Source: Escherichia phage vB_EcoS-IME253
DNA: 46,717 nt
Sequence record: NC_047810.1
Direction: 5' to 3' (one strand)
In this document: one piece after another, positions 4,008-44,157 of the stretch
Numbering within the stretch: position 1 is the stretch's first letter
Layout: each line of letters begins with the position of its first letter
The notes under the pieces: model-generated
The model's input: the letters and a program-made list of their open reading frames with translations, nothing else
Told to the model about the DNA's origin: nothing
The model's database searches: none
Translations under genes and position numbers: made by a program

Positions 4008-4022
4008 TGGGGGCTATATTTT
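3993..4022. terminator. bidirectional rho-independent terminator between convergent genes
   Basis: A-run, hairpin agccccc-taat-gggggct, T-rich run. Confidence 0.6.
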
Positions 4023-4368
4023 AGCTAAATAACTCGTCGTCAGTCATTGTTCCTATATTCATCATCTCTTTTATGTACTTGCTCTGATACCCGCTAAGTG
4101 CCTCGAAATTAAACTCAAATGGCCTTTTCAAACTCCCCTTGCTAACAAACTCACCGCACTTACCATCAATGTAACCCGCGCTAAGCATCTTCGCGCAGAA
4201 CTCCTTTGAAGCAGCACTGCAAAACTCTCTATGCGATAAACCCGATGCCTTGCTGAACCTCTCAGAGTCCTTATGTTGGTATATGAACCGCGCCAAATGC
4301 TGTCGCGTGAAAAAGCTGTAAGATTCGCAGAACTTAAATATATCGAGCATGAACATAATTAACTCCAT
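4021..4368 (-). CDS. hypothetical protein (about 111-115 aa, start uncertain)
   Basis: ORF on minus strand, last gene of the leftward operon before the bidirectional terminator. Confidence 0.4.
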   Translation of the reverse strand: MELIMFMLDIFKFCESYSFFTRQHLARFIYQHKDSERFSKASGLSHREFCSAASKEFCAKMLSAGYIDGKCGEFVSKGSLKRPFEFNFEALSGYQSKYIKEMMNIGTMTDDELFS

Positions 4369-4445
4369 TGCATGCTTAAAACAAATATGACACCAGAAAT
4401 CACCACAAGGAAACCAAACAATATAAGTAGAATGTCAAGCATAAA

Positions 4446-6029
4446 TCACCCCAACAGTCGTGGATTAATGTAAACTTTATCACCAATCAGGCACGTATAG
4501 TTTTTCTCATCAAGCATTGGCAGTAAGTGATCTTTAATCTTTGTCATTACACCAGCCTGAGCTTCGAACGGCTTAACCTTACGAGCCGCTTCATATAGAG
4601 AACGAATACCCACTACTCCTTTACCGTTCTTGCCTTGCTTAATTAGAATATCAATCAGCTTATTCATCTCGGCATTGTCGCCAGCGTGACCAGCGGCGTT
4701 TGCAGATGACAGATAAGTCTTGCTAAGTTCATGGAACATAATTACAGCTTCTTGCATGGTGTCGAGCTCGATCTCTCTGGACTTCTGTGGACTACCGCCA
4801 TTTGGGTTGAACCAGTTGCGCACAGTGTGAAGAACAGCTGCAATCCTTATGGCCTGCTTATCGAACTTACCCAACGCGCCGCGCAACATTGTATGTGAAT
4901 ACTTCCCGCCATCTGCAAGGTGAGGTTCCATCTCCTGACGCGCACGGTTGAGGTATTTCATCGCTGAGTTGCTTACTGTCAACTTAACATCTTGCTCGTT
5001 CATGATCTCATGAACAAGACGGAAGTAGTCGGCCTTCAGGCCACCATCAATTGGCTCGTAAGTTGAATTTCCATTCTCATCAACGAATACACGCTCACCC
5101 AGGAATGACTTTTCACGGACGAGAAGGAAACGCTCCGATACACCGATACCACGTGCGCCAGCGTTCATTATCGCGTTTATTGTCTCGTCCTGCGCAATTA
5201 CAGAGATACAACCCATAGCAACGAAACTCATGTTGTTCTCTGCATTAGCACGCGCGATAGATACGTTACCAGCATCCCATGCCTTGAGTACGAGTTCGCT
5301 GTTCGTTTTCTTCGAGCCGTCACCATAAGTCATGCCAAGCAGTGAGTTCACGCTCGTCGCCTCATCCGAGATGACCGCGAAGTTGCCCTGGCGGTTGTTT
5401 ATTCGCGCAAGACCTTCCGGCGTGGTATCTGATACAGGGAAAACGATATCGCATAGTCTCTCGAGCTTTTCCTCAAGTTCCTCCTTTTCCTCAAAGAGAG
5501 ACGCCATCTCTGATGGAGATTTTTCCTGCTTCATCTCTTTTGATAACGCAGATAGTTTGGCCATAATCTTTTTACGCTCATGCTTTCGCACTTCATTAAG
5601 CCGCTCAGTCTCAGCAATCATTGGAGCAATTGAAAGTGAGTTAATTGCTGATTTACCAGTCGATGGTGGCTGGCTTGTCACGACATAAAGAGAAGTAGGC
5701 TGCTGAGTTCCATGATACTCAACTGTAAATCGGCCTAGCATCGCAGCGGAAATACACCCCAGAAAGTGCATATAAGCTGACGACTCAGGGAACTGAACGG
5801 AACGGGCAATATTGGCTGACAGCTTACCAACAACATCAATGTCATTACCGAGTGAGATTACTGGATACTTGTCATTTGCAGCATCAATCTCGACAGGTGC
5901 TTTCCAGAATGATTGAGACTGGCGATAGCCATTGGCATTAATGGCGACGCGCAGGGGCGGGAGGTTGTCCGCGGCTGCAATTGCCATAACCTGTTCAACA
6001 GATAGTTTATCTTCGTTGAAATCAAACAT
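4446..6029 (-). CDS. large hypothetical protein (527 aa) with P-loop-like STGKS segment and coiled-coil region
   Basis: Long ORF with RBS aaggag; N- and C-terminal segments homologous to the 174-aa product of 8721..9245. Confidence 0.6.
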   Translation of the reverse strand: MFDFNEDKLSVEQVMAIAAADNLPPLRVAINANGYRQSQSFWKAPVEIDAANDKYPVISLGNDIDVVGKLSANIARSVQFPESSAYMHFLGCISAAMLGRFTVEYHGTQQPTSLYVVTSQPPSTGKSAINSLSIAPMIAETERLNEVRKHERKKIMAKLSALSKEMKQEKSPSEMASLFEEKEELEEKLERLCDIVFPVSDTTPEGLARINNRQGNFAVISDEATSVNSLLGMTYGDGSKKTNSELVLKAWDAGNVSIARANAENNMSFVAMGCISVIAQDETINAIMNAGARGIGVSERFLLVREKSFLGERVFVDENGNSTYEPIDGGLKADYFRLVHEIMNEQDVKLTVSNSAMKYLNRARQEMEPHLADGGKYSHTMLRGALGKFDKQAIRIAAVLHTVRNWFNPNGGSPQKSREIELDTMQEAVIMFHELSKTYLSSANAAGHAGDNAEMNKLIDILIKQGKNGKGVVGIRSLYEAARKVKPFEAQAGVMTKIKDHLLPMLDEKNYTCLIGDKVYINPRLLG

Positions 6030-6098
6030 TACTTTTACTCCTTATTGGTGCGCCAATGTTAACGCACCTATATTAAATCCGATTGTCGATAAATTCCA

Positions 6099-6326
6099 TT
6101 AATACATTGAAAGCAAAACATAGCCAGGAAGATAAGATGAAACATCTGCTATATGTAAAACTTCCTTGATGACAATCCTTCCTGTGTATTCGCCATCTTC
6201 AAACTCTTTAAGTATTAGCTTGTCTCCTATAGAGAAATTTCTATCATTTTTTCTAAGTTCAGCTAACTTAAGGCCAGCCTCAACTGGTTCGAAATGGATT
6301 GGCGATATCTTTAGCTCATGAATCAT
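6099..6326 (-). CDS. small protein, possibly ASCH/PUA-like fold
   Basis: 75-aa ORF with RBS gagg; weak resemblance to ASCH-like small proteins (ELKI..FE.V..G.K..E.RKNDR). Confidence 0.35.
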   Translation of the reverse strand: MIHELKISPIHFEPVEAGLKLAELRKNDRNFSIGDKLILKEFEDGEYTGRIVIKEVLHIADVSSYLPGYVLLSMY

Positions 6327-6676
6327 TTGTATTGCGCCTCAAATAGGTAGTCACCGCAAACTGTAACAAAGCCAACCTCTTCGTCACGATATAGCTGCCA
6401 GGCGCTACCCTCTTTATCGTAAATGTATCCAGCGCACTGTCCAAGCCCGGCATGGAGATCTACTTGATACCGCTTCCCTTCAGTAAAGTATTTTCTAATA
6501 GATGAGCGATGATTGACCTTTGTGCAATAAATTGTCTTGGTCTTAATATACTTGCCGCGCTCTTCCAGGTTAATCCATTTTCCATCTTTCTTGATTTGCT
6601 CTACACCATCTTTAATGCGAGCTTTGTATAATACGTTTTCGTTGCTGATCCAGTTTTTAGTAATTGTAGTAGTCAT
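6323..6676 (-). CDS. hypothetical protein (117 aa from ATG 6676)
   Basis: ORF track start at 6700 is a GTG; ATG at 6676 is preceded by caacgaagagag, like other genes here. Confidence 0.45.
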   Translation of the reverse strand: MTTTITKNWISNENVLYKARIKDGVEQIKKDGKWINLEERGKYIKTKTIYCTKVNHRSSIRKYFTEGKRYQVDLHAGLGQCAGYIYDKEGSAWQLYRDEEVGFVTVCGDYLFEAQYK

Positions 6677-6863
6677 TTTTTTACTCTCTTCGTTGTCCAC
6701 ATGAATTTGTTAGGTACTAATTTGCGCACGATGCGCACTACAATCTTATCAAACTTCTGAACTAAGCTGTAAATCTTCCCATTAAGTGATGCTCGGTACA
6801 CTGCCTCTTCCATTGCGTCGTAAAAGTTGTCGAACCTTTCTTATCTCCCATTTCGATGGAAAG

Positions 6864-6907
6864 ATAATACCGCATCCTTGCGGAAATGCTTTAGCAATTA
6901 GTGCTAT
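6864..6907 (-). promoter_or_regulatory. palindrome-plus-hexamer element (copy 3, minus orientation)
   Basis: rc atagcactaattgctaa at 6891-6907; rc TATTAT at 6864-6869 (22-nt spacer); rc catcgaaa leader 6851-6859. Confidence 0.45.
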
Positions 6908-7052
6908 TTCGTGCTTTTTCTATAGCCTTGAGCATAATTTCATGACTTTCTAGCAAGTCCTCGCGGAACCAGTCTCCGCAAGGCCAACCCTTACCGCTGT
7001 AAGCTGCGATGGTGCAAAGATCGTAATAGTTAATATCTGATGGCAGAAGCAT
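6891..7052 (-). CDS. hypothetical small protein (53 aa)
   Basis: Hand-translated minus-strand ORF; ATGA overlap with upstream gene; TAA stop lies inside the palindromic element. Confidence 0.3.
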   Translation of the reverse strand: MLLPSDINYYDLCTIAAYSGKGWPCGDWFREDLLESHEIMLKAIEKARNSTNC

Positions 7053-7291
7053 CACTTCACCTCATCAAAAGTTGCAAGTCCAGGTATGAGCATCCCAATC
7101 TTCCAGCCAGCGATGGCAATCCATCCAGAATCGTGCTTGTGAGGTCGCTCAGCGCCATTAATCAACCATTCGTTCGGGATTACCTTCCCGTTAATGATTA
7201 GAGGCTCAGCGTCGTATACAGAGCCTTTTACGAATGGTGTTAGTACTTTCTTGTCGGTACTTGTAATAACGTTTGTACAGCGAATTTTCAT
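7052..7291 (-). CDS. hypothetical protein (79 aa)
   Basis: ORF with RBS gaggattgagat before ATG at 7291. Confidence 0.45.
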   Translation of the reverse strand: MKIRCTNVITSTDKKVLTPFVKGSVYDAEPLIINGKVIPNEWLINGAERPHKHDSGWIAIAGWKIGMLIPGLATFDEVK

Positions 7292-7301
7292 ATCTCAATC
7301 C

Positions 7302-7478
7302 TCAAAATGGAATGCAGTGATTACAACCTTCACCACTACAACAGAAATCTTCATCCTCTGACTGGAAATGCCTGGCAAGATCTATGTCTAACTTTCCGCG
7401 CACCACAAGGTCGGTGTAATCCTCGTTAAGCCCAATCAGTGAGCATTCGTGACGCAGCTTATCTTTATCAATCTTCAT
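7302..7478 (-). CDS. small Cys-rich protein (58 aa; CC..C..C at C-terminus)
   Basis: Hand-translated minus-strand ORF; RBS ggggaaagga; first gene downstream of the reverse-oriented element at 7509-7553. Confidence 0.35.
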   Translation of the reverse strand: MKIDKDKLRHECSLIGLNEDYTDLVVRGKLDIDLARHFQSEDEDFCCSGEGCNHCIPF

Positions 7479-7508
7479 TCCTTTCCCCTCGTTGTTGATG
7501 ATGAGCTA

Positions 7509-7553
7509 ACTATAGCTTCATTACCTCAGTATGCCTTTAGCAAAAAGTGCTAT
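7509..7553 (-). promoter_or_regulatory. palindrome-plus-hexamer element (copy 4, minus orientation)
   Basis: rc atagcactttttgctaaa at 7536-7553; rc TATAGT at 7509-7514 (23-nt spacer); leader rc catcatcaacaacgagg. Confidence 0.45.
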
Positions 7554-7779
7554 TCGTTAGATTTATTGATTGTTGCGGATATTGCAATTATTACAATGAT
7601 TATTGCACATTCAGCAATATTGCTTCAGATGAAATGATGTCTTTGATTGTTGCGAAAAGTGAAATGGAGTGGCGAGTGAGTGAATGAAAGAGTGATGGAC
7701 TACCATACAAGTTTATTTTGATTCTGGCCGAGCCATTCCTGAGCTGACGCGTAATTGTGCGTAACTCATGTATAGGGCC

Positions 7780-7916
7780 TGTATACTGTGTAACGATTTG
7801 GCATAAGCATACGCGGCATACGCATTTTTACGCATTAGTTACAATAAAATATCTATATATAACAACCCTTTATCTATATTATTATTATTATATATATCTA
7901 TGTATACTGTGTAACG
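7780..7916. repeat. pair of 16-bp direct repeats tgtatactgtgtaacg flanking the AT-rich core
   Basis: Identical 16-mers at 7780-7795 and 7901-7916; region also rich in GTAAC/GTTAC and GCGTAA/TTACGC pentamers. Confidence 0.55.
7827..7916. repeat. AT-rich 90-bp repeat, copy A (core ttattattattattatatatat)
   Basis: About 85 percent identical by eye to 36941..37030; sits in a 545-bp non-coding divergent region. Confidence 0.6.
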
Positions 7917-8184
7917 GCTATCTAGGGGCGGCATCTGTCAAATTTGATAATATTGCCCACTAATATATAAGGGAGCCATTCCGCCAGGATAATAGGGCCA
8001 TATGCAGACAATCACCATTCAGTATGCGTTACACGATATACTGCCTACTTACATTAGGCGCAGCTAGGCCTCCAGGGCAAAAATGTTTCCAGGCCTGTTT
8101 TTTACATGTGATTACTATTGACTTACGCGTTAACTACCATCATAATAGCCTCACTTAAACGCAGCAACCAAATGAGGTAACGAG

Positions 8185-8721
8185 ATGAATAAGGTAACTT
8201 TAGGTGATGTAATTCGTGAGATGGTCCGCCAGGCGATTAAGTCCGACAAGAAACTATGTGTAGTTCCAGTTCGAAAGATATTCAACATGGTCAACGGGTA
8301 TGATTATCCGGATGAAATCATCGACGAGGAAACTGGAGAGTTCAAAACGCCTGGTCGTGAAATCGCAGGCCTGAAAAGTTCATACATCTATAACACCGCC
8401 GCAAGAATGCAGGAGCTTCGCGATATTGATATGCACGTAAAGCATCGCTTTATCTGGCTGGCGTCAGGCGAGGAAACGGTAGCGCGCAAGGTTGATGGCG
8501 ATGGCGCGGACAAGAACCTTCTGATCCAGCTTGAGCCTGGTGCTCTTAAGCCGACAAAGCGTAAGACTGCAGATATTGAGAAAGAGGCAGCCACCATTGA
8601 AAGGTTTAAGTCACGACTACTCAAGATCGCGCCGAATATTATAGACCTGCAAGGCGAACAAAAAGAAGGCGCGCTTATTGCCCTGGCACGCTACTATGAA
8701 ATGATTAAGGAGGCTAACTGA
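8185..8721 (+). CDS. hypothetical protein (178 aa)
   Basis: First rightward gene after the AT-rich divergent region; RBS gagg. Confidence 0.5.
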   Translation: MNKVTLGDVIREMVRQAIKSDKKLCVVPVRKIFNMVNGYDYPDEIIDEETGEFKTPGREIAGLKSSYIYNTAARMQELRDIDMHVKHRFIWLASGEETVARKVDGDGADKNLLIQLEPGALKPTKRKTADIEKEAATIERFKSRLLKIAPNIIDLQGEQKEGALIALARYYEMIKEAN

Positions 8722-9245
8722 TGTTTAATTTAAACGAAGAGAAACTGACGGACGAGCAGATTATGAATATTGCTATCCAGGATGATCTGCCGCCACTGCG
8801 GGTTGCAATCAATGCTAACGGTTATCGTCATGTTCAGCACCTCTGGGGCCAGCCTGATGCATCGGAAGTCTACAGAGATGAAGCGCTGGGAGTTCTGATT
8901 AAGTTGATCAGGAAGATGGCAAGGAACGGAAAGGGAGTGGTGGGTGTCAAGTCTGTACACGAAGCTGCACGTAAGGTTAAGCCGTTCGAGGGTCGAAATG
9001 GAATCATGGCGCGCATTAAGGATGAGCTCATCCCCGCACTCGATAAGATGAATGTTACCTGTCTAATTGGAGATAAGGTTTATGTCCACTCGGCAATCAT
9101 TGATGAGTACTGGCAACCAAACTTCAAAACTTACGAAGGTGAGCACACTAGTAGACTACCATACCACTTGCTGTACAGTGAGGGTGAGGTGGAGATGGCC
9201 GTAGAGTTCTATCGGAAAGCTAAATCACTTCTGAACGGTAAATAG
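8721..9245 (+). CDS. mini-paralog of the 527-aa protein (174 aa; shared N- and C-terminal modules only)
   Basis: N-terminus MFNLNEEKL..LPPLRVAINANGYR and C-terminal NGKGVVG..EAARKVKPFE..CLIGDKVY match 4446..6029; TGATG coupling to the upstream gene. Confidence 0.55.
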   Translation: MFNLNEEKLTDEQIMNIAIQDDLPPLRVAINANGYRHVQHLWGQPDASEVYRDEALGVLIKLIRKMARNGKGVVGVKSVHEAARKVKPFEGRNGIMARIKDELIPALDKMNVTCLIGDKVYVHSAIIDEYWQPNFKTYEGEHTSRLPYHLLYSEGEVEMAVEFYRKAKSLLNGK

Positions 9246-11633: not shown

Positions 11634-11711
11634 GCTCTGCTAGCTCAACAGGATAGCAGCAACGACCTTCTAAGTCGTAGGTTACTGGTTCGAATCCAGT
11701 GCGGAGCGCCA
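11634..11711 (+). tRNA. tRNA-Arg (anticodon UCU)
   Basis: Hand-folded cloverleaf: acceptor GCUCUGC/GCGGAGC, D-loop with GG, anticodon stem ACGAC/GUCGU with loop CUUCUAA, T-arm ACUGG-UUCGAAU-CCAGU, discriminator G and encoded CCA. Confidence 0.75.
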
Positions 11712-12338: not shown

Positions 12339-12845
12339 ATGAGCAAAGCAGCATTAAAGATGGGTGAGGGAAATTTCAAGGCGCTCTACAACAAGAAGTA
12401 TGGCGACATTGCTATGGTGGCAATCAACCGCAAGTACACGCCTGAGGAAGTTTTTGACTTCGCTGTTCGATACTTCTCTTGGGCAGAGAGTGAGGCAATC
12501 AAGGCTATTGAGACGGCAGCATTCCAGGGGGTTGTTGGTGAAAGCCTCGTACATAAACCGCGAGTATTCACCTTGACGGGGCTTGCGCTCTTCATGGGTG
12601 TTAATATCAATAGATTCGCTCGCTGGCGCACTGAGGCTGGATACTCTGATGTTATGGAATTCATTGATAACGTAATCTACGAGCAGAAATACCAACTTGG
12701 CGTTGCAGGCATTATCAACTCCACCATCGTTGGTAAAGAGCTTGGCATTGATAAGCCACAGGAGATTACCATCAGTAATAACTCTACAGCTAACGACGTT
12801 GATAGCATGAAGGAAGCACTGGAATCTGTGATTGGTAAATTATAA
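12339..12845 (+). CDS. terminase small subunit (putative)
   Basis: 168-aa ORF directly upstream of terminase large subunit; RBS aaggagg; promoter-like extended -10 upstream. Confidence 0.55.
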   Translation: MSKAALKMGEGNFKALYNKKYGDIAMVAINRKYTPEEVFDFAVRYFSWAESEAIKAIETAAFQGVVGESLVHKPRVFTLTGLALFMGVNINRFARWRTEAGYSDVMEFIDNVIYEQKYQLGVAGIINSTIVGKELGIDKPQEITISNNSTANDVDSMKEALESVIGKL

Positions 12846-12864
12846 CAATAAGAGGGTATAACAC

Positions 12865-14430
12865 ATGTCTTTAGTATGGGAAGAAATGACCATTCAGGAA
12901 AAGATGGCCGTCAAGGCGATATCAGAACACAGCTTCGAGGGCTTTCTTCGCTGCTGGTTCCAAATCACACAAGGCGAGCGATACATCCCTAACTGGCACC
13001 ACAAATATCTATGCCGAATTATCGACGAGATTATAGCAGGGGAGCGAAAGGACACCATCATCAACATAGCGCCGGGTAGTGGAAAGACGGAAATCGCTTC
13101 AATTCACTTTCCGGCCTACTCTATGGTTAAGTTAAAGAAGGTTCGCAACCTTAACATCTCTTTTGCCGACTCACTGGTTAAGCGCAACTCCAAGCGCGTA
13201 CGTGACCTCATCAAGTCTCAAGAATTTCAGTCACTCTGGCCATGTAAGTTTGGCACTTGCAAAGACGATGAGCTTCAGGTTCTTGATGAGAGTGGCAAGG
13301 TGAGATTTGAGTCAATCTCGAAAGCGGCTGGTGGTCAGATTACTGGTGCTCGAGGTGGGTACATAACTGAAACATATAGCGGCGCGGTTTTGCTGGATGA
13401 TTTTGACAAGCCCGCCGATATGCTATCAGCAGTGTACCGCTCGAATAATCACGTAATGCTAAAGAACACGATTCGCTCACGTCGCGCTAGCTCTGTAAAA
13501 GGAAAGGCGACACCAATAATTTCGATACAGCAGCGACTGCACGTCAATGACTCAACGTATTTCATGATGGAAGGCGGTATGGGTATCGACTTTGACTTGA
13601 TTAAGATACCTGCGCTAGTTACTGAGGATTACATAGATTCGCTTCCTGACTGGATTAAAGAACAGTTTGCGGAAGACGTATTAAGCAGTGAGTGCATTGA
13701 GCGAGATGGCGTAAAGTACTACAGCTACTTTCCTAAAAAGGAGTCAGTAAACGACCTTGTTGCGATGTGGGATAGTGACCCGTACACTTTCCTTAGTCAA
13801 TATCAGCAGGAACCTGTAGCACTAGGTGGAAACCTCATTAATGTGGATTGGTTCCAGCGAATCAGCGATACTTTCAGACCTCCAGCTAAGTATGACTATA
13901 GATTCATCACATGCGATACCGCGATGACTACAAAGAGTTATAGTGACTTCTCTGTGCTTCAACTGTGGGGATATAAGGATGCTAAGATTTACCTTATAGA
14001 CCAGCGTCGAGGCAAATGGGAGGCGCCTGAGTTGGAGGCAGAACTACTGGACTTCGAGAGGAAATCAAGGGCAACCAGTCAGGTAGATGGCATCCTACGA
14101 AAAATCATCATCGAGAAGAAATCATCCGGAATCGGACTTATTCAGTCGGCAGGCAGAGTGATGAGAACGCCGATAGAGCCATACGTACCTGATAACGACA
14201 AGCTAACCAGGGTAATGAGCGCACTGCCACAGATTAAGGCTGGCAATGTAGTTCTTCCAGAATCAGCGCCGTGGTTAAGCGGATTGCTCACGGAGATTGC
14301 AGCTTTTACGGCAGATGATAGCCACAAACACGATGACCAAATTGACTGTCTAACAATGGCAGTAAACCTTGTTCTCAATATCGCAGATGATCCTAAGTCC
14401 AGATTAATGCGCATAGCGGGAATTAAATAG
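12865..14430 (+). CDS. terminase large subunit
   Basis: 521 aa; P-loop-like IAPGSGKTE near N-terminus, acidic nuclease-type C-terminal half; position before portal. Confidence 0.8.
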   Translation: MSLVWEEMTIQEKMAVKAISEHSFEGFLRCWFQITQGERYIPNWHHKYLCRIIDEIIAGERKDTIINIAPGSGKTEIASIHFPAYSMVKLKKVRNLNISFADSLVKRNSKRVRDLIKSQEFQSLWPCKFGTCKDDELQVLDESGKVRFESISKAAGGQITGARGGYITETYSGAVLLDDFDKPADMLSAVYRSNNHVMLKNTIRSRRASSVKGKATPIISIQQRLHVNDSTYFMMEGGMGIDFDLIKIPALVTEDYIDSLPDWIKEQFAEDVLSSECIERDGVKYYSYFPKKESVNDLVAMWDSDPYTFLSQYQQEPVALGGNLINVDWFQRISDTFRPPAKYDYRFITCDTAMTTKSYSDFSVLQLWGYKDAKIYLIDQRRGKWEAPELEAELLDFERKSRATSQVDGILRKIIIEKKSSGIGLIQSAGRVMRTPIEPYVPDNDKLTRVMSALPQIKAGNVVLPESAPWLSGLLTEIAAFTADDSHKHDDQIDCLTMAVNLVLNIADDPKSRLMRIAGIK

Positions 14431-28765: not shown

Positions 28766-29524
28766 ATGTTAACACCAAAAGTTAAACTGGAAATCTTCCA
28801 GCACGCAAAAGAAGTTTACCCGCACGAATGTTGCGGGGTTGTCACGCAGAAAGGTCGCGCGCAGAAATACCACAGAATCAAGAACGCCAGCAAAGACCCA
28901 GAGAATGAATTCATCCTTGATTCAAATGAGTATGCAGACGTTCTCTTTGAGTTGGCTCACAACGAGTCAATTGTTTATGTAGTTCACTCTCATACAGGCG
29001 ATGGAGCCACAACAAGACCAAGCCCAGCGGACATTTGCAGCTGCAATGAGTGCGAGATTCCTTACGTTATCGTCAGCATTCCGGAAGGAGACATGCGGAT
29101 CCTTGAACCTTCAACCATGCCACTGATTGGTCGCCCATGGGGTCTTGGTAGCTTTGACTGCTGGGAGTTGGTAATGGCATTTCACAAGAAATACGGCGTC
29201 AAACTGAATGACTACCGCGTTAATTACCCGTGGTGGGAGAAGCGATACAATGAGAATATCTATGAAGACAACTGGATTAAGGAAGGATTTGAGCTAGTAA
29301 AAACTTCAGATATTCCTATTGGCTCAATGATTATGATGCAGGTTCAAAGTGAGGTGACAAACCACGCCGGAATCTATATTGGCAACAACAGATTCATTCA
29401 TCACCTTTATGGTAAAATGAGTTCAGTTGATATCTACTCCGATTACTGGCGAGAGCGCACTGTGCGAATCGTTCGCCATAAGGATTTACCAGAGGATGTA
29501 ATTTATGACCCAGAAACTGATTGA
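28766..29524 (+). CDS. tail assembly protein K (JAB/MPN plus NlpC/P60-like)
   Basis: HSHTGDGATTRPSPAD metalloprotease-like motif; ATG 28766 with RBS agaggtg. Confidence 0.7.
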   Translation: MLTPKVKLEIFQHAKEVYPHECCGVVTQKGRAQKYHRIKNASKDPENEFILDSNEYADVLFELAHNESIVYVVHSHTGDGATTRPSPADICSCNECEIPYVIVSIPEGDMRILEPSTMPLIGRPWGLGSFDCWELVMAFHKKYGVKLNDYRVNYPWWEKRYNENIYEDNWIKEGFELVKTSDIPIGSMIMMQVQSEVTNHAGIYIGNNRFIHHLYGKMSSVDIYSDYWRERTVRIVRHKDLPEDVIYDPETD

Positions 29525-30077
29525 TATTAAGTTAGGCTTGTCTCTAGGCCGCAAGTTTGGAAAGATTCACCAGATGGCAGTGAATAGCGTGCCAGAGGCT
29601 ATGCGAGCGCTTTGCTCTCAGATTCCTGCATTCAAGGAGTTCATGAGCAGCCACGTTGGGCAGAACACAAGATACGCAGTCTTTGTAGATGGTAAAAATG
29701 TGAACGAGCATCAAATCTCTGATTTTAGTGCCGTTCAGGAGATACGCATCTTGCCAATCCCGCAAGGCCGAAAGTCCGGCGGTTTGTTTCAGACAATTTT
29801 AGGTGCAGCGCTTATCACGGTTGGCATCTTCACTGGGCAGATTTATCTTGTTGGTGCTGGCGTATCTTTGGCAGCAGGTGGTATTTCCCAGCTACTCTCA
29901 CCGCAGGCAACTGGATTAAAGACCCAGAACAACCAAACAAGCAACAGAGCATCTTACGCATTTGGCTCGGCCGTGAACACTGTAGCTGCTGGTTATCCAG
30001 TTTGCCTTCCATACGGCTATCGAACTGTTGGCGGGTCTGTATTTAGTGCAGGCAGTTATAGTGAAGATATTTCTTGA
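29505..30077 (+). CDS. tail assembly protein I (lambda gpI-like)
   Basis: 190 aa with hydrophobic Gly-rich centre; overlaps K 3-prime end. Confidence 0.6.
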   Translation: MTQKLIDIKLGLSLGRKFGKIHQMAVNSVPEAMRALCSQIPAFKEFMSSHVGQNTRYAVFVDGKNVNEHQISDFSAVQEIRILPIPQGRKSGGLFQTILGAALITVGIFTGQIYLVGAGVSLAAGGISQLLSPQATGLKTQNNQTSNRASYAFGSAVNTVAAGYPVCLPYGYRTVGGSVFSAGSYSEDIS

Positions 30078-36716: not shown

Positions 36717-36796
36717 TCCTAAGATTTGAGGAGTTAACTAAGTTCTTTTCCTCAATTTGAGGAGGAGTTGACAGCACCATTGCCGCCACGCGCCTA

Positions 36797-36840
36797 AATA
36801 TACCTAAAGATAGCCAGTTGTCTTTAGCAAATCGTGCTAT
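36797..36840 (-). promoter_or_regulatory. palindrome-plus-hexamer element (copy 12, minus orientation)
   Basis: rc atagcacgatttgctaaa at 36823-36840; rc TATATT 36797-36802 (22-nt spacer). Confidence 0.45.
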
Positions 36841-36940
36841 TTATCGACAATTTCACCATAAATCACAGTTACACGTAACCGATGTAACTCGATGTATACA
36901 ATCTCATCCGCGGGAAATGATATACGCGCTGTTACGCCAA

Positions 36941-37030
36941 TTTACGCATTGGTTACATTAAAATATCTATATATATCAACCTTTTACTCTTATTATTATT
37001 ATTATATATATTACTGTGTATATCATGTAA
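36941..37030. repeat. AT-rich 90-bp repeat, copy B
   Basis: tttacgcattggttacattaaaatatctatatatatcaacc...ttattattattattatatatat; matches copy A. Confidence 0.6.
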
Positions 37031-37327
37031 CTACTTCTATAGAGTGTTCCGGTTATAATTTTAATATCATGTGGATTTATACAGTATTGCGCGGCAGCTA
37101 TACCAATGCACCCTCAGCGAGAAACGGCATACACGATATACACGATGTTTACATTGAGCTATGGCTGGCTTGAGATGCCAAAAAGCGTAACTAGTGCCAA
37201 TGCCTACACGAAATTACAAAGATTCACGCGTAAACTTAAATCAACGATTGGCAAAACCAATTGGACTGGTTACGGTGCTGAATATATAGTTACCTCATCG
37301 AAAGCAATCAACCAGAGAGATATATAA

Positions 37328-37522
37328 ATGACCTACTACATTATCAAAGAGAAAAACAACGCACTGTTCGGCGACTGCTACTTTGGAGGAGAGGCCGGTT
37401 ACACCACGGATAAGAACGAAGCAGACAGATTCGAGACCAAAGGAGAAGCCCGCGATGTACTGACCGGTTACTTCACTGAAGAAGATTTGAAGTCTGTTAA
37501 AGTAGTTAAGGTCAAGGGGTGA
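37328..37522 (+). CDS. hypothetical protein (64 aa)
   Basis: ATG after leader tatagttacctcatcgaaagcaatcaaccagagag. Confidence 0.45.
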   Translation: MTYYIIKEKNNALFGDCYFGGEAGYTTDKNEADRFETKGEARDVLTGYFTEEDLKSVKVVKVKG

Positions 37523-37525
37523 GTT

Positions 37526-38491
37526 ATGAGCTTTAAAGTTTTTACGCGAGAGGAGCTAAGCAACGAGGCTTACCACGCTGAAACTGAACACATCTCAGGT
37601 AGCTCGCTTGTCGAGATTATCCAGGGATCACCAGCCAAGTGGAAGTTTAAGCAGCGCAACAATGATAGCAAGGCGCTTAAGTTCGGCACGCTAAGCCACA
37701 CGATGATTTTAGAGCAAGATGTATTCGAAAAAGAATACCTTCGCGCAACAGACCTTGACTCGATTGAAGGCTTAATTACAAGTCAGTCTGGATTATCATC
37801 AGCACTTAAAAAAGTTGGTGTAGCTGGCACGTCAGGTAAGGGGTATAGCGAGCTTATAGAGATGATGTATCGATCTGGTGAGGATTGGCCCGTTGGATGG
37901 TTAATTGAGCAGCAGGAGAGCGCCCAGGCGCTTGCGGATGGTAAGGAGCTAGTTAGCGCAGTAGACTATGACAAGGTTGTAGCGATGCGTGAGGTCCTCT
38001 GCAACATTCCGGCGTATAATGCGATCGTGAACAGTAAGACGGCGCAGAAAGAGTTATCGATCTTCGGTGAGATTCTAGGAGTCGGCGTTAAGATTCGAAT
38101 TGACCACGTTGATGTTGTTGATGGAGCAGTTCGGATCACAGATTACAAAACGACAGCAGACGCAAGCCCGGAAGGATTCGGTAAGTCAGCATTCAACCAC
38201 GGATACCTTGCAAAAATGGCACTTCAGCGTGATCTGTTTGTGAAAGCATTCAACGAGAAGCGCAAGGTTGTTGTGGGGTTGCTGGCACAGGAGAAGGTGG
38301 AGCCATACTTACCAATGCTGTACACCCTAACTGACGAACAGCTTCGCATTGGTCGTCTCCAGTATCTTGAGGCACTTGCCACTTACAAGAAGTGCAAGGA
38401 GCTAGATATCTGGCCTGGGTACTCGAACGGCATAACAGAGCAAGAACTACTAGTCCCTGAGTGGGCTCTAAAGCAATACAAAGAAATCTAA
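37526..38491 (+). CDS. PD-(D/E)XK family exonuclease (recombination exonuclease)
   Basis: IRIDHVD...ITDYKT nuclease-type motif; strong RBS aaggggtg; upstream of annealing protein gene. Confidence 0.55.
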   Translation: MSFKVFTREELSNEAYHAETEHISGSSLVEIIQGSPAKWKFKQRNNDSKALKFGTLSHTMILEQDVFEKEYLRATDLDSIEGLITSQSGLSSALKKVGVAGTSGKGYSELIEMMYRSGEDWPVGWLIEQQESAQALADGKELVSAVDYDKVVAMREVLCNIPAYNAIVNSKTAQKELSIFGEILGVGVKIRIDHVDVVDGAVRITDYKTTADASPEGFGKSAFNHGYLAKMALQRDLFVKAFNEKRKVVVGLLAQEKVEPYLPMLYTLTDEQLRIGRLQYLEALATYKKCKELDIWPGYSNGITEQELLVPEWALKQYKEI

Positions 38492-38535
38492 ACAGCACGA
38501 ATTGCTAAAACAAAACGGGATGACTTAGGTATAGT
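38492..38535 (+). promoter_or_regulatory. palindrome-plus-hexamer element (copy 13, variant)
   Basis: acagcacgaattgctaaa after TAA of exonuclease gene; TATAGT 38530-38535; next ATG 38565. Confidence 0.45.
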
Positions 38536-38564
38536 TATCCAATCAACAACGAACGAGGTTAAAG

Positions 38565-39215
38565 ATGCAAATTTCAGAATTATGCAAATCAATTTTAAAA
38601 GCGCTTCACACTGCTAAATCGCTATTTGCGAAGGCTGAAAAGTCTAAGCAGAACTCTCACTTAAAGAATAAATACGCTACCTTAGAAGACGTTTTGGCGG
38701 CTGTTGAGCCTGGTTTATATGAGTGTGGTTTGGTGATGTTCCAGAGTGTGATTGATGACGAACAAACAAATCGCATGAAGGTCGAGACAAAGCTGTTTCA
38801 TGTTGAATCTGGAGAGTGGGTAAGCTTCTTAATGATAGTCCCAATCAGCAAGAATGATGCACAAGGTTACGGATCAGCTTTAACATACGCTCGTCGCTAC
38901 GGTATCACAGCTGCCTTGGGTCTTAGCCAGGCTGATGATGACGGAAATCTTGCAGCCAAAGGCGTTAAGGATTTCAAGCGAGAGCTAGAGAAATGCAATA
39001 CTCTTGATGAACTTCGTAACGTCTGGAAAGAGGCTAAGCAGTCACTTGATGCGGCTGGATGGAAGGTTTTTGAACCTCACATTATCGAGCGCAAGGCAGA
39101 GATTGAGGCAAATGCGATGACTGGCTTCAACCCAGCAACACCAAAGAAAGTTGCAGAAAAAAGTAGTCCTGAAGAAAAGATTAAAGTAGAATCACAACAA
39201 ATCGACACATTCTAA
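38565..39215 (+). CDS. single-strand annealing protein (Erf-like, putative)
   Basis: 216 aa, TYARRYGI-type motif, position between exonuclease and SSB. Confidence 0.45.
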   Translation: MQISELCKSILKALHTAKSLFAKAEKSKQNSHLKNKYATLEDVLAAVEPGLYECGLVMFQSVIDDEQTNRMKVETKLFHVESGEWVSFLMIVPISKNDAQGYGSALTYARRYGITAALGLSQADDDGNLAAKGVKDFKRELEKCNTLDELRNVWKEAKQSLDAAGWKVFEPHIIERKAEIEANAMTGFNPATPKKVAEKSSPEEKIKVESQQIDTF

Positions 39216-39258
39216 ATTTAACGGGGCTGCGGCCCCAACAAACATAGAGAGATAAAGC

Positions 39259-39681
<423 letters not shown>

Positions 39682-42680: not shown

Positions 42681-42702
42681 AAAAAAACCTCCCGAGGGAG
42701 GT
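42681..42702 (-). terminator. rho-independent terminator for primase gene (minus strand)
   Basis: A7 then hairpin cctccc-gag-ggagg on plus strand, i.e. hairpin plus T7 on minus. Confidence 0.55.
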
Positions 42703-43625
42703 TAGTTTAGCAAGTCTTTGGCTTTGTACACTTTCTTGCGTATTCCTGTTTTGAATGACTTCCCGTCATTAGGTATTACCACATCAACATTGCGATCATC
42801 AGCAACAGCGAGAATATCGATATCGCAATCGCGACAAGCAACTCTAAACTTTCGTGATTTGTCGCGGTGCATAACCATCTCCATGTTGTAACAGGAGAAA
42901 GCAACAAAAACCTCACGACACCCAGTAGCAATGTGAACACGTACGCCATCAATAAAATTATCAACAACATAAGTGTAGCCATCAACCTGCCTAGAACCAA
43001 TGACAGCAACAGAATCACGAGTGTAATCACCAGCTAGGAATTTAACATTTGAATCTCCATCAATAAACATTAAGTTGCAGAACTCATCACCAAGACCATC
43101 CTCGTAAACCATCGAGCATGGTACGGCATGAATCATTGAGCCATCCTTAGCTATGCCAACATCGAATCCATCATCAAGATAAATACCTTCATATGTTGTG
43201 AGTGGGCTTGATTCAACTCTTACAGTCCGATCCATGACTTCAAGAACTTTTTCATGATCTACCTGTGCGCCCATTTTGTAACGCTGAGTCCTTGATGCTT
43301 GCTTATTTGCCTTATTAACCACCTCTACAGGGATAAGGTTTAACCACTCAACGAGAACATCTATACATTCACTGAATGACTCCCCCCTCATCTTTTGTAA
43401 CCACAGAATTCCATCGCCTGAGCCACACTGGTTGCAGATAATGCCGCCATCACCTTCTTCGCTAACCTTGTTAGTCCATCGTGCTCGGTCGTTTCCTCCA
43501 CAATAAATACATGGCTGATGCTTTTTGGTCTGGAAGAATTTTGGGTCTGCGCCGCAGATATTGATAAGTGCCTTATCCCACAGGCCGCGCATTCTTGGTA
43601 AAACCTCTTTCTTATCGTAGTGCAT
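42702..43625 (-). CDS. DNA primase-like protein (zinc-binding N-terminus)
   Basis: CIYCGG...CNQCG cysteine pairs near N-terminus; adjacent to helicase module. Confidence 0.4.
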   Translation of the reverse strand: MHYDKKEVLPRMRGLWDKALINICGADPKFFQTKKHQPCIYCGGNDRARWTNKVSEEGDGGIICNQCGSGDGILWLQKMRGESFSECIDVLVEWLNLIPVEVVNKANKQASRTQRYKMGAQVDHEKVLEVMDRTVRVESSPLTTYEGIYLDDGFDVGIAKDGSMIHAVPCSMVYEDGLGDEFCNLMFIDGDSNVKFLAGDYTRDSVAVIGSRQVDGYTYVVDNFIDGVRVHIATGCREVFVAFSCYNMEMVMHRDKSRKFRVACRDCDIDILAVADDRNVDVVIPNDGKSFKTGIRKKVYKAKDLLN

Positions 43626-43683: not shown

Positions 43684-44157
43684 TTACTCTTTAGCTTTTC
43701 GTGCTGCCTCATTAGCGGCCTTGATCTTTCTCCATGAACGACACTCTGGTTTGGTTGCTAACTCGGACTCAGTAACCACACGCAGCATGTGACGCTTCTT
43801 GCACCGTAATGTCAGCGGCTTTCCGTTGCCGTCGAATTGCAGGTCTGGTCGGCAGAATGTAGCGCGAAAACCTTCTCCATTTCGTTTGTAGTAGTTGTGC
43901 GATAGCTGAGCACCACGTGCAGAAATCATACCACGCTTAAACCATTCCTCTACAGCCTGTGGTGTTACCTTTAACTGCTTTGCGATATTCGCCTTTGTGC
44001 CGAAGAAATCAAGAACAATCTCCAGTCGCGCGCGCAACCCTGCCCTTACTTCATCTTTCAAAACGTAGTAACCTGAAGGTCGTTTTCGTTGTTTTTTGTC
44101 TTCAGTGCGGACAGTTCCGTTATTACCGTTGATTGTTCTCTTGTCGACTGTATTCAT
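43684..44157 (-). CDS. HTH DNA-binding protein (putative transcriptional regulator)
   Basis: Basic N-terminus and HTH-like IAKQLKVTPQAVEEWFKRG; sits in divergent region. Confidence 0.4.
   Translation of the reverse strand: MNTVDKRTINGNNGTVRTEDKKQRKRPSGYYVLKDEVRAGLRARLEIVLDFFGTKANIAKQLKVTPQAVEEWFKRGMISARGAQLSHNYYKRNGEGFRATFCRPDLQFDGNGKPLTLRCKKRHMLRVVTESELATKPECRSWRKIKAANEAARKAKE

Follow-up and report, generated by a model that had tools for sequence, protein, structure and literature searches.

A putative packaging region, a duplicated AT-rich module and a predicted early promoter in an intergenic gap of Escherichia phage vB_EcoS-IME253: candidate replication origins of T1-like phages

The intergenic gap and its parts

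Escherichia phage vB_EcoS-IME253 (sequence record NC_047810.1) has a Drexlerviridae genome with a T1-like layout, and the complete 46,717 bp of this genome, here called the window, were analyzed. A gap without genes (7479-8184; region A) lies between two diverging operons: on one side the nearest leftward gene (7302-7478, minus strand) has its start at 7478, and on the other a DUF7174 protein is encoded by the first rightward gene (8185-8721). The initial annotation, which read the locus as a replication origin and/or an early regulatory hub, described a non-coding region of 545 bp (7640-8184) from which leftward and rightward operons diverge; the divergence and the lack of a credible open reading frame (ORF) were borne out, whereas the extent had to be corrected to 706 bp. 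All ORFs inside the gap are of 68 amino acids or fewer, and ten related phages differ from it by many insertions and deletions with lengths that are not multiples of three. An intergenic gap of about 700-1000 bp is found at the equivalent place in the related phages examined.

This untranslated region of T1-like phages is already understood to house the packaging start (pac) as well as early promoters. The papers on the TLS and SU57 genomes identify no replication origin (PMC11447400, PMC7718038), and in the literature searched there is no description of twin paralogous AT-rich, repeat-flanked modules across three subfamilies, of such modules as the two stability minima of each genome, or of a 21-bp unit at the genome end. 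In this study, the gap is interpreted as three adjacent parts with different jobs, namely a pac region, an origin-like module and an early promoter, an explanation to which, as a whole, we give a rough probability of 0.45. The central part, module A, has a paralogue, module B, elsewhere in the window; judged from their sequence anatomy, both may be replication origins of the type that combines iterons with an unwinding element, and we place this at somewhat under even odds. The features concerned are as follows.

7509-7553, minus strand: predicted leftward promoter of a dispersed-element class, just left of the 7640-8184 region
7555-7745, plus strand: pac-proximal block, present in region A and missing from the paralogous region B in the A/B alignment
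7568-7588, 7598-7618 and 7645-7665, plus strand: three direct 21-bp units (GATTRTTGC-N6-WGMAAY), a candidate small-terminase recognition array
7654-7698, plus strand: purine-rich tract with four AGTGA, on the putative packaged-side flank of the pac block
7745-8140, plus strand: module A, AT-rich and flanked by repeats, paralogous to module B
7780-7795, plus strand: left 16-mer, an exact copy of TGTATACTGTGTAACG
7809-7834, plus strand: three TACGC (7810, 7819 and 7829) abutting the core, arranged as ATACGC..TTACGC..TTACGCA in both A and B
7838-7908, plus strand: AT-rich core, a candidate DNA-unwinding element, about 90% conserved
7901-7916, plus strand: right 16-mer, TGTATACTGTGTAACG, with its first 12-13 bases kept in all related A and B modules
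8027-8041, minus strand: third, inverted repeat copy, CGTTACACGATATAC, 87% complementary; the module B equivalent, ATACACGATATAC, is conserved
8118-8146, plus strand: predicted early rightward promoter, TTGACT-17-CATAAT, with 10/12 consensus matches, GAGG at 8174-8177 and ATG at 8185
36860-37240, plus strand: module B, paralogue of A, upstream of the exonuclease/Erf/SSB-position operon (37328-39681)

In an alignment of 11 phages, column identity peaks at 7569-7718 (85-93%) and at 7839-7908 (about 90%), with flanks at 53-72%. Two peaks of this sharpness argue that both blocks are under selection, beyond chance AT-richness.

Twin AT-rich modules

The core of module A runs from GTTACA through a 19-mer (ATATCTATATATAACAACC), an IHF-like site (TAACAACCCTTTA, 7860-7872) and (TAT)5 at 7877-7891 to TATATAT, and 87% of the bases in 7845-7905 are A or T, in accord with the (TTA)n AT-rich core described initially. 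The IHF-like site is one mismatch from the consensus WATCAANNNNTTR, which wants an A/T-rich tract on its 5' side. GCGTAA/TTACGC occurs four times in 7479-8184, against 0.65 expected from the genome-wide rate, and GTAAC/GTTAC six times, against 1.7 on the same basis; the multiplicity of these motifs had been pointed out earlier and amounts to a several-fold enrichment. All three genome copies of GTGTAACG also lie inside these limits. The 16-mer TGTATACTGTGTAACG had been reported as an identical pair, and its two exact copies are indeed the only ones in the 46.7-kb genome, but the inverted third copy at 8027-8041 had been overlooked. The left copy is restricted to the region-A type of the window, being present in the window and ESCO41 and, with one or two mismatches, in ETEP102 and TH30. 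In module A of 12210I and Sd1 the left GTTACA is changed to TATACA and the right TGTAAC to TGTATA; with these paired replacements the inverted pair is kept, although the pattern fails in Rtp, IME542 and c290.

Module B sits in a second gene-free divergent region (36717-37327). Its core is at 36953-37013, the IHF consensus is matched perfectly at 36974-36986, and GTTACA/TGTAAC repeats are present as well. Two ORFs reported for this region (36892-37173 and 37106-37327) are probably spurious, since relatives differ there by 1-nt insertions and deletions. A blastn comparison aligned 7819-7915 with 36933-37031 at 85% identity over 100 bp (E = 1.5e-24), and a weaker colinear similarity extends over about 380 bp, from about 7760-8140 in A and 36870-37240 in B. 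Common to both modules are TACGC repeats to the left, TGTATAY..TGTAAC to the right, an inverted (G)TTACACGATATAC some 110 bp beyond that, and ACGCGTAA close to the gene-proximal promoter; the three genome copies of ACGCGTAA are all in modules A and B. Furthermore, region B also carries a leftward copy of the dispersed promoter element.

When nearest-neighbour stability was calculated genome-wide in 60-bp stretches, the two lowest values fell at 7845-7905 (z = 4.9) and 36953-37013 (z = 5.0), with the next at 3.6. The minima of T1 are at 214-274 and 30009-30069 (z = 5.8 and 5.5, next 3.75), and those of TLS at 216-276 and 28823-28883 (z = 5.2 and 5.1, next 3.4). In both of these phages the first site lies upstream of the first rightward gene, a short way to the right of the assigned pac, and the second is upstream of a recE-like gene. 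Paralogy of A and B within one genome is likewise detectable in T1 (E = 3e-8) and TLS (E = 7.6e-4), and the 19-mer ATATCTATATATAWCAACC has exactly two copies per genome in six Rtp-like or Nouzillyvirus genomes. Unbiased k-mer enrichment gave a heptamer for each lineage, with four of seven genome copies of GTGTAAC in A plus B for the window, all six copies of TGTAACA for T1 and four of eight copies of GTGAACA for TLS.

Module B was found in 133 phage records, with 82-94% identity among Rtp-like phages; module A is more variable (50-96% identity). Concerted evolution of A and B was considered and rejected, as A-B identity is 51-65% whichever genomes are compared, which implies that the duplication is old. 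A plasmid collection searched with module B gave no match.

The packaging block and the promoters

The block 7555-7745 is assigned, through its homology to mapped or annotated genome ends, as the pac region and not as an origin. The 21-bp unit GATTRTTGC-N6-WGMAAY has three matches in the genome, all within 7568-7665, against 0.15 expected, and the units show dyad symmetry around a 12-bp palindrome, AGCAATATTGCT (7612-7623). The T1 record has exactly two copies, one across the record junction and the other at position 27; position 1 of T1 is the fifth base of the unit, and 1-2800 is annotated there as a repeat region, i.e. the terminal redundancy. Position 1 of Rtp aligns to about 7612 of the window, and the records of ESCO41, OzMSK, Rtp, SU57 and CEB_EC3a all have their ends at places equivalent to 7573-7737. 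The SU57 end, at about 7720, was picked at an abrupt change in read depth in PhageTerm data, and its authors put pac in this untranslated region (PMC7718038). The pac site of TLS was placed in the homologous region by restriction mapping (PMC11447400). Since T1, Rtp, TLS and SU57 have their genome end or assigned pac in the block left of about 7745, this block is taken as a packaging feature and not as a set of origin iterons, and since region B lacks exactly 7555-7745, pac is separable from the AT-rich module. The 21-bp unit is confined to T1/Rtp-type phages, and the pac region of TLS has TGATT repeats instead. A P22-pac-like GATTTAT at 7561-7567, kept in Rtp-like phages and missing from T1, was not relied on.

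The purine-rich tract at 7654-7698 is 85-93% conserved in the 11 phages. The initial annotation counted five AGTGA repeats here as part of one merged origin; AGTGA is indeed enriched in 7479-8184 (five on both strands, against 1.4 expected), but only four are on the plus strand (7658, 7675, 7679 and 7691), and the merged origin was abandoned because the packaging feature that region B lacks takes in this run and all sequence left of about 7745. The TLS analogue of the tract, GAGTAGTGAGTGAGTAG, is about 40 bp inside the TLS pac assignment.

The phage is taken to package by a headful mechanism of the T1 type, and a small terminase of the P22 gp3 type is predicted to bind the three 21-bp units. 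The first cut would be made within this group, near 7612-7617, with DNA packaged rightward. The first packaged chromosome would then have the AGTGA tract and all sequence rightward of it just within its left end, and would repeat them in its terminal redundancy. Such an arrangement resembles SPP1 pacL-pacC-pacR and the pac sites of P1 and P22 in having a unique cluster of short repeats around the first cut and a gp3-family small terminase. In P22 and SPP1, however, pac is inside the small-terminase gene, whereas in the window it is intergenic and about 4.7 kb upstream of the terminase genes; unlike P1 pac, the window region has no GATC sites. Across the 46.7 kb there are 75 GATC sites, against about 180 expected from length alone.

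The third part of the gap, at 8118-8146, is predicted from its consensus and conservation to be the early promoter of the rightward operon. Its sigma-70 hexamers, spacer and ribosome-binding site are all recognizable, and its position is kept in all 11 aligned phages. The spacer contains a conserved TTACGCGTTAAC (ACGCGT.AA), which may mark an operator. Host RNA polymerase would use this promoter for the rightward early operon. T1 and TLS also have strong gene-adjacent promoters, including TTGACT-16-TATAAT upstream of recE, and the gene-adjacent promoters are 200-250 bp from the cores. The core was itself tried as a promoter and rejected: hits within it are no commoner than in shuffled sequence, and their strand and place differ between the modules. 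With real promoters by the genes, the core therefore probably serves neither as a promoter nor as an UP element.

On the left, the predicted promoter at 7509-7553 consists of ATAGCACTTTTTGCTAAA (7536-7553), a -35-like AAGGCA (7537-7532), a 17-nt spacer and a -10 TATAGT (7514-7509). Together with the sigma-70 promoter it agrees with the early regulatory hub proposed initially. It contains one of 16 genome copies (0-2 mismatches) of a dispersed element, ATAGCACnnnTTGnTAAA, each of which is oriented with transcription.

637, 6890, 7536, 9242, 14427, 22448, 35598, 36823 and 46671: example sites of the dispersed element

Most copies have a TATAGT-like hexamer about 23 nt on, together with a leader that is conserved, TTAcC.CATCGAAACGA..GAGG, and a short GC hairpin is often present between the element and the hexamer. 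The fixed distance to the hexamer and the leader point to a phage promoter class, possibly one that depends on an activator. The '21-nt direct repeat' described in TLS, aaATAGCACnnnTTGnTAAAA (PMC11447400), is the same element; compared with it, the window copies mostly have a -10 and a leader, and one of them lies at 7536-7553.

Interpretation and genome setting

Extreme helical instability, a trinucleotide run of fixed length, repeats in two orientations and a possible IHF bend together make up the anatomy of an iteron-plus-unwinding-element origin. A low-stability AT-rich element is present in each module, and several copies of a short repeat lie by the core, in modest numbers. The description of the locus as iterons plus an AT-rich unwinding element is accordingly fair for the centre, 7745-8110, which has a paralogue and follows the pattern of T1 and TLS, but not for the AGTGA run. 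Extended to the family, the suggestion is that all Drexlerviridae carry two homologous origins, one inside the packaging start and one upstream of the recombination operon, which we offer tentatively, as something rather less than an even bet. A similarly tentative proposal, also short of an even chance, is that at each site an AT-rich core is flanked by a lineage-specific heptamer that a phage protein reads; candidates for this protein are the putative winged-helix domain of the DUF3987 helicase and the free-standing 174-amino-acid paralogue of that helicase, and the Cro-like helix-turn-helix protein is a second candidate for an initiator that binds the repeats. The genes that enter into this and other readings are the following.

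4021-7478, minus strand: leftward operon, including the DUF3987 helicase at 4446-6029
From 8185 rightward, plus strand: small early genes
8721-9245, plus strand: 174-amino-acid protein, second gene right of region A (PHROG 7327 / 2373)
12339-14430: small and large terminase genes, the small terminase (12339-12845) belonging to the P22 gp3 family
After the terminase genes: head and tail genes
37526-39681, plus strand: exonuclease/Erf/SSB-position operon
42702-43625, minus strand: primase, with a zinc ribbon
43684-44157, minus strand: Cro-like helix-turn-helix protein
Further on in the gene layout: SNF2-type helicase

The phage thus encodes a DUF3987 replicative helicase together with a primase that has a zinc ribbon; the annotation of the T1 primase gives it similarity to alpha proteins of the P4 type. 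Proteins of the DUF3987 group act as 5'-3' helicases and have a small domain at the C-terminus (PMC11724360). In the window this small domain was modelled as a winged helix, with weak fold matches (E of 0.1 or worse); a sequence search of the helicase against the PDB gave no match. The 174-amino-acid protein joins the ~45 N-terminal residues of the DUF3987 helicase to its small, winged-helix-like C-terminal domain, lacks the ATPase core, and is found in some relatives only. It might act as a competitor or regulator of the helicase at DNA or at protein partners.

In the proposed mechanism, a phage DNA-binding protein would occupy the GTGTAAC/TACGC repeats on both sides of the core and in both orientations, melting of the (TAT)n/(TA)n core would follow, and the helicase (DUF3987) and the primase (P4-type) would be loaded. 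By a logic like that of SPP1, one site would fire, and the other would either fire too or stall forks and so bring about a switch to concatemer synthesis.

SPP1 has two separated origins, oriL and oriR, with directly repeated sequences as well as an AT-rich unwinding element, and these are its genome's strongest A+T islands (PMC6316719). Like the present phage, it is a pac-type siphovirus with two similarly organized, separated sites. However, there is no sequence or protein homology between SPP1 and the window modules, and the window has a DUF3987 helicase and a P4-like primase, with no visible counterpart of gp38, the initiator that binds the SPP1 origins, and no visible DnaB-type helicase. 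Furthermore, oriL is inside the initiator gene, whereas both window modules are intergenic, and origin function has been demonstrated in SPP1, whereas it is a proposal for the window modules. A further comparison is with satellite phage P4, in which two separated cis regions, ori and crr, share a short repeat, TGTTCACC, that is bound by the alpha protein, and the helicase carries a C-terminal winged-helix origin-binding domain. The P4 repeat TGTTCACC is similar to TGTTACAC of T1 and to TGTTCAC of TLS, which serves as a lead and not as a test. In contrast to P4, the primase and helicase of the window are separate proteins, and the fold search did not recover the P4 domain.

Several observations weigh against origins at the two modules or against parts of that reading. 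The interval 7479-8184 has no DnaA boxes (TTWTNCACA) and no GATC, so that it does not resemble an origin of the oriC type. There are few repeats, three to six per module, and the k-mer p-values of 1e-5 to 1e-9 come from scans of many k-mers. No IHF consensus is present in either T1 core. None of the candidate proteins could be linked to the repeats, and covariation between protein and heptamer over three lineages (window, T1 and TLS) showed no clear pattern. The model of the 174-amino-acid protein (predicted local distance difference test, pLDDT, 82) gave weak matches of winged-helix type (among them the MCM4 C-terminus, MukE and E2F/DP), with E values of at least 0.1. DUF7174 was tried as a DNA-binding partner and set aside, with no sequence match in the PDB and an AlphaFold model (pLDDT 78) without a meaningful fold match. 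For the pac assignment, the starts of several GenBank records in the block were set after the T1 convention and are therefore not independent evidence. The check by GC skew proposed initially proved uninformative: cumulative skew tracks gene orientation, skew as a whole follows gene class and the direction of transcription, and skew at third codon positions separates early from late genes whatever their strand or position, so that no origin signal emerges.

Finally among these points, both modules are directly upstream of early operons, for which a role in the control of transcription fits equally well. On that alternative, the twin modules would do nothing else: a regulator such as the Cro-like helix-turn-helix protein, acting on the GTGTAAC/TACGC repeats with an IHF-type bend, would switch two early rightward operons and the diverging leftward genes together. 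The placement upstream of early operons holds in the window, T1 and TLS, ACGCGTAA lies within the spacer of the 8118-8146 promoter, and the IHF consensus is perfect in module B as well as in 12 of 15 aligned Rtp-like modules. The recognition helix of the Cro-like protein has Q in the window and T1 (both GTGTAAC) and K in TLS (GTGAACA), a difference that tracks the heptamer, though anecdotally. However, most of the repeats and the core are 200-300 bp upstream of the promoters, which is too far for an operator or UP element of the ordinary kind, no consistent promoter is found in the core, and control of transcription alone leaves unexplained the two stability minima in three genomes and the fixed length of the (TTA/TAT)n run. 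Regulation as the sole function is, on balance, unlikely, but it deserves serious consideration.

Far smaller chances attach to three further readings. Repeats flanking an IHF site are known from lambda R3-I1-R2, and the 15-16 bp repeats around the IHF-like site of module A resemble them; as the region also adjoins the mapped genome end, 7555-8110 might be a single extended packaging signal like lambda cosB or P1 pac, with the 16-mers as terminase sites. This is very improbable, given that module B is without the 21-bp units, that the records examined annotate no second genome end at that place, that the left 16-mer is missing from most relatives, and that module B is far more conserved than module A. 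A sole classical origin, with AGTGA, GCGTAA and GTAAC all serving as iterons around the AT-rich core, would account for the enrichment of every motif and for the core itself, but it receives very little weight, since the AGTGA tract is in the block missing from region B and travels with the genome end in TLS, and a second, equivalent module exists. The conserved blocks might also encode a small RNA or a micro-protein instead of DNA sites, since a long nested hairpin can be drawn for 7576-7660, and small ORFs are annotated here in some GenBank records. Almost all pairs in the hairpin stem are invariant, however, which gives no covariation support for an RNA fold; folding of 7760-8060 is no more stable than that of shuffled sequence (z = +1.4), an Rfam scan of the window returned no family in the gap (the sole match being a tRNA at 11634-11708), and frame-breaking insertions and deletions separate the relatives. 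We regard this last explanation as hardly worth entertaining.

Modules A and B are the best origin candidates so far for the T1 family; should they be origins, they would be its first, as the sources searched report none. The search for origins is narrowed to two conserved stretches of about 120 bp each per genome, set apart from the packaging signal. T1 belongs to the original set of T phages, and phages like it commonly contaminate laboratories and fermenters and are also candidates for phage therapy; knowledge of pac, the origin candidates and the early promoter aids genome engineering and the reading of transduction and terminus data. Work on the modules would further show if a DUF3987 helicase paired with a P4-type primase uses an origin-recognition system of its own.

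Within its family, the window is closest genome-wide to ZL19 (98.5% identity). The two differ in module A and in the first rightward gene, the pac block being retained at 88%, and a recombination breakpoint lies near 7755. Module A of the window has its nearest relatives in the Nouzillyvirus phages ESCO41 and TH30 and in ETEP102; taken with the mismatch to ZL19, this indicates that the region is mosaic. The DUF7174 gene (PHROG 4841) is the first gene within the terminal redundancy, with a homologue at the equivalent position in related Rtp-like phages and a more distant counterpart (18% identity) at the same position in T1; a search for related loci with the DUF7174 protein alone returned three. 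The tRNA at 11634-11708 (RF00005, 55.9 bits) lies among the small early genes, and a tRNA-Arg is annotated in related records.

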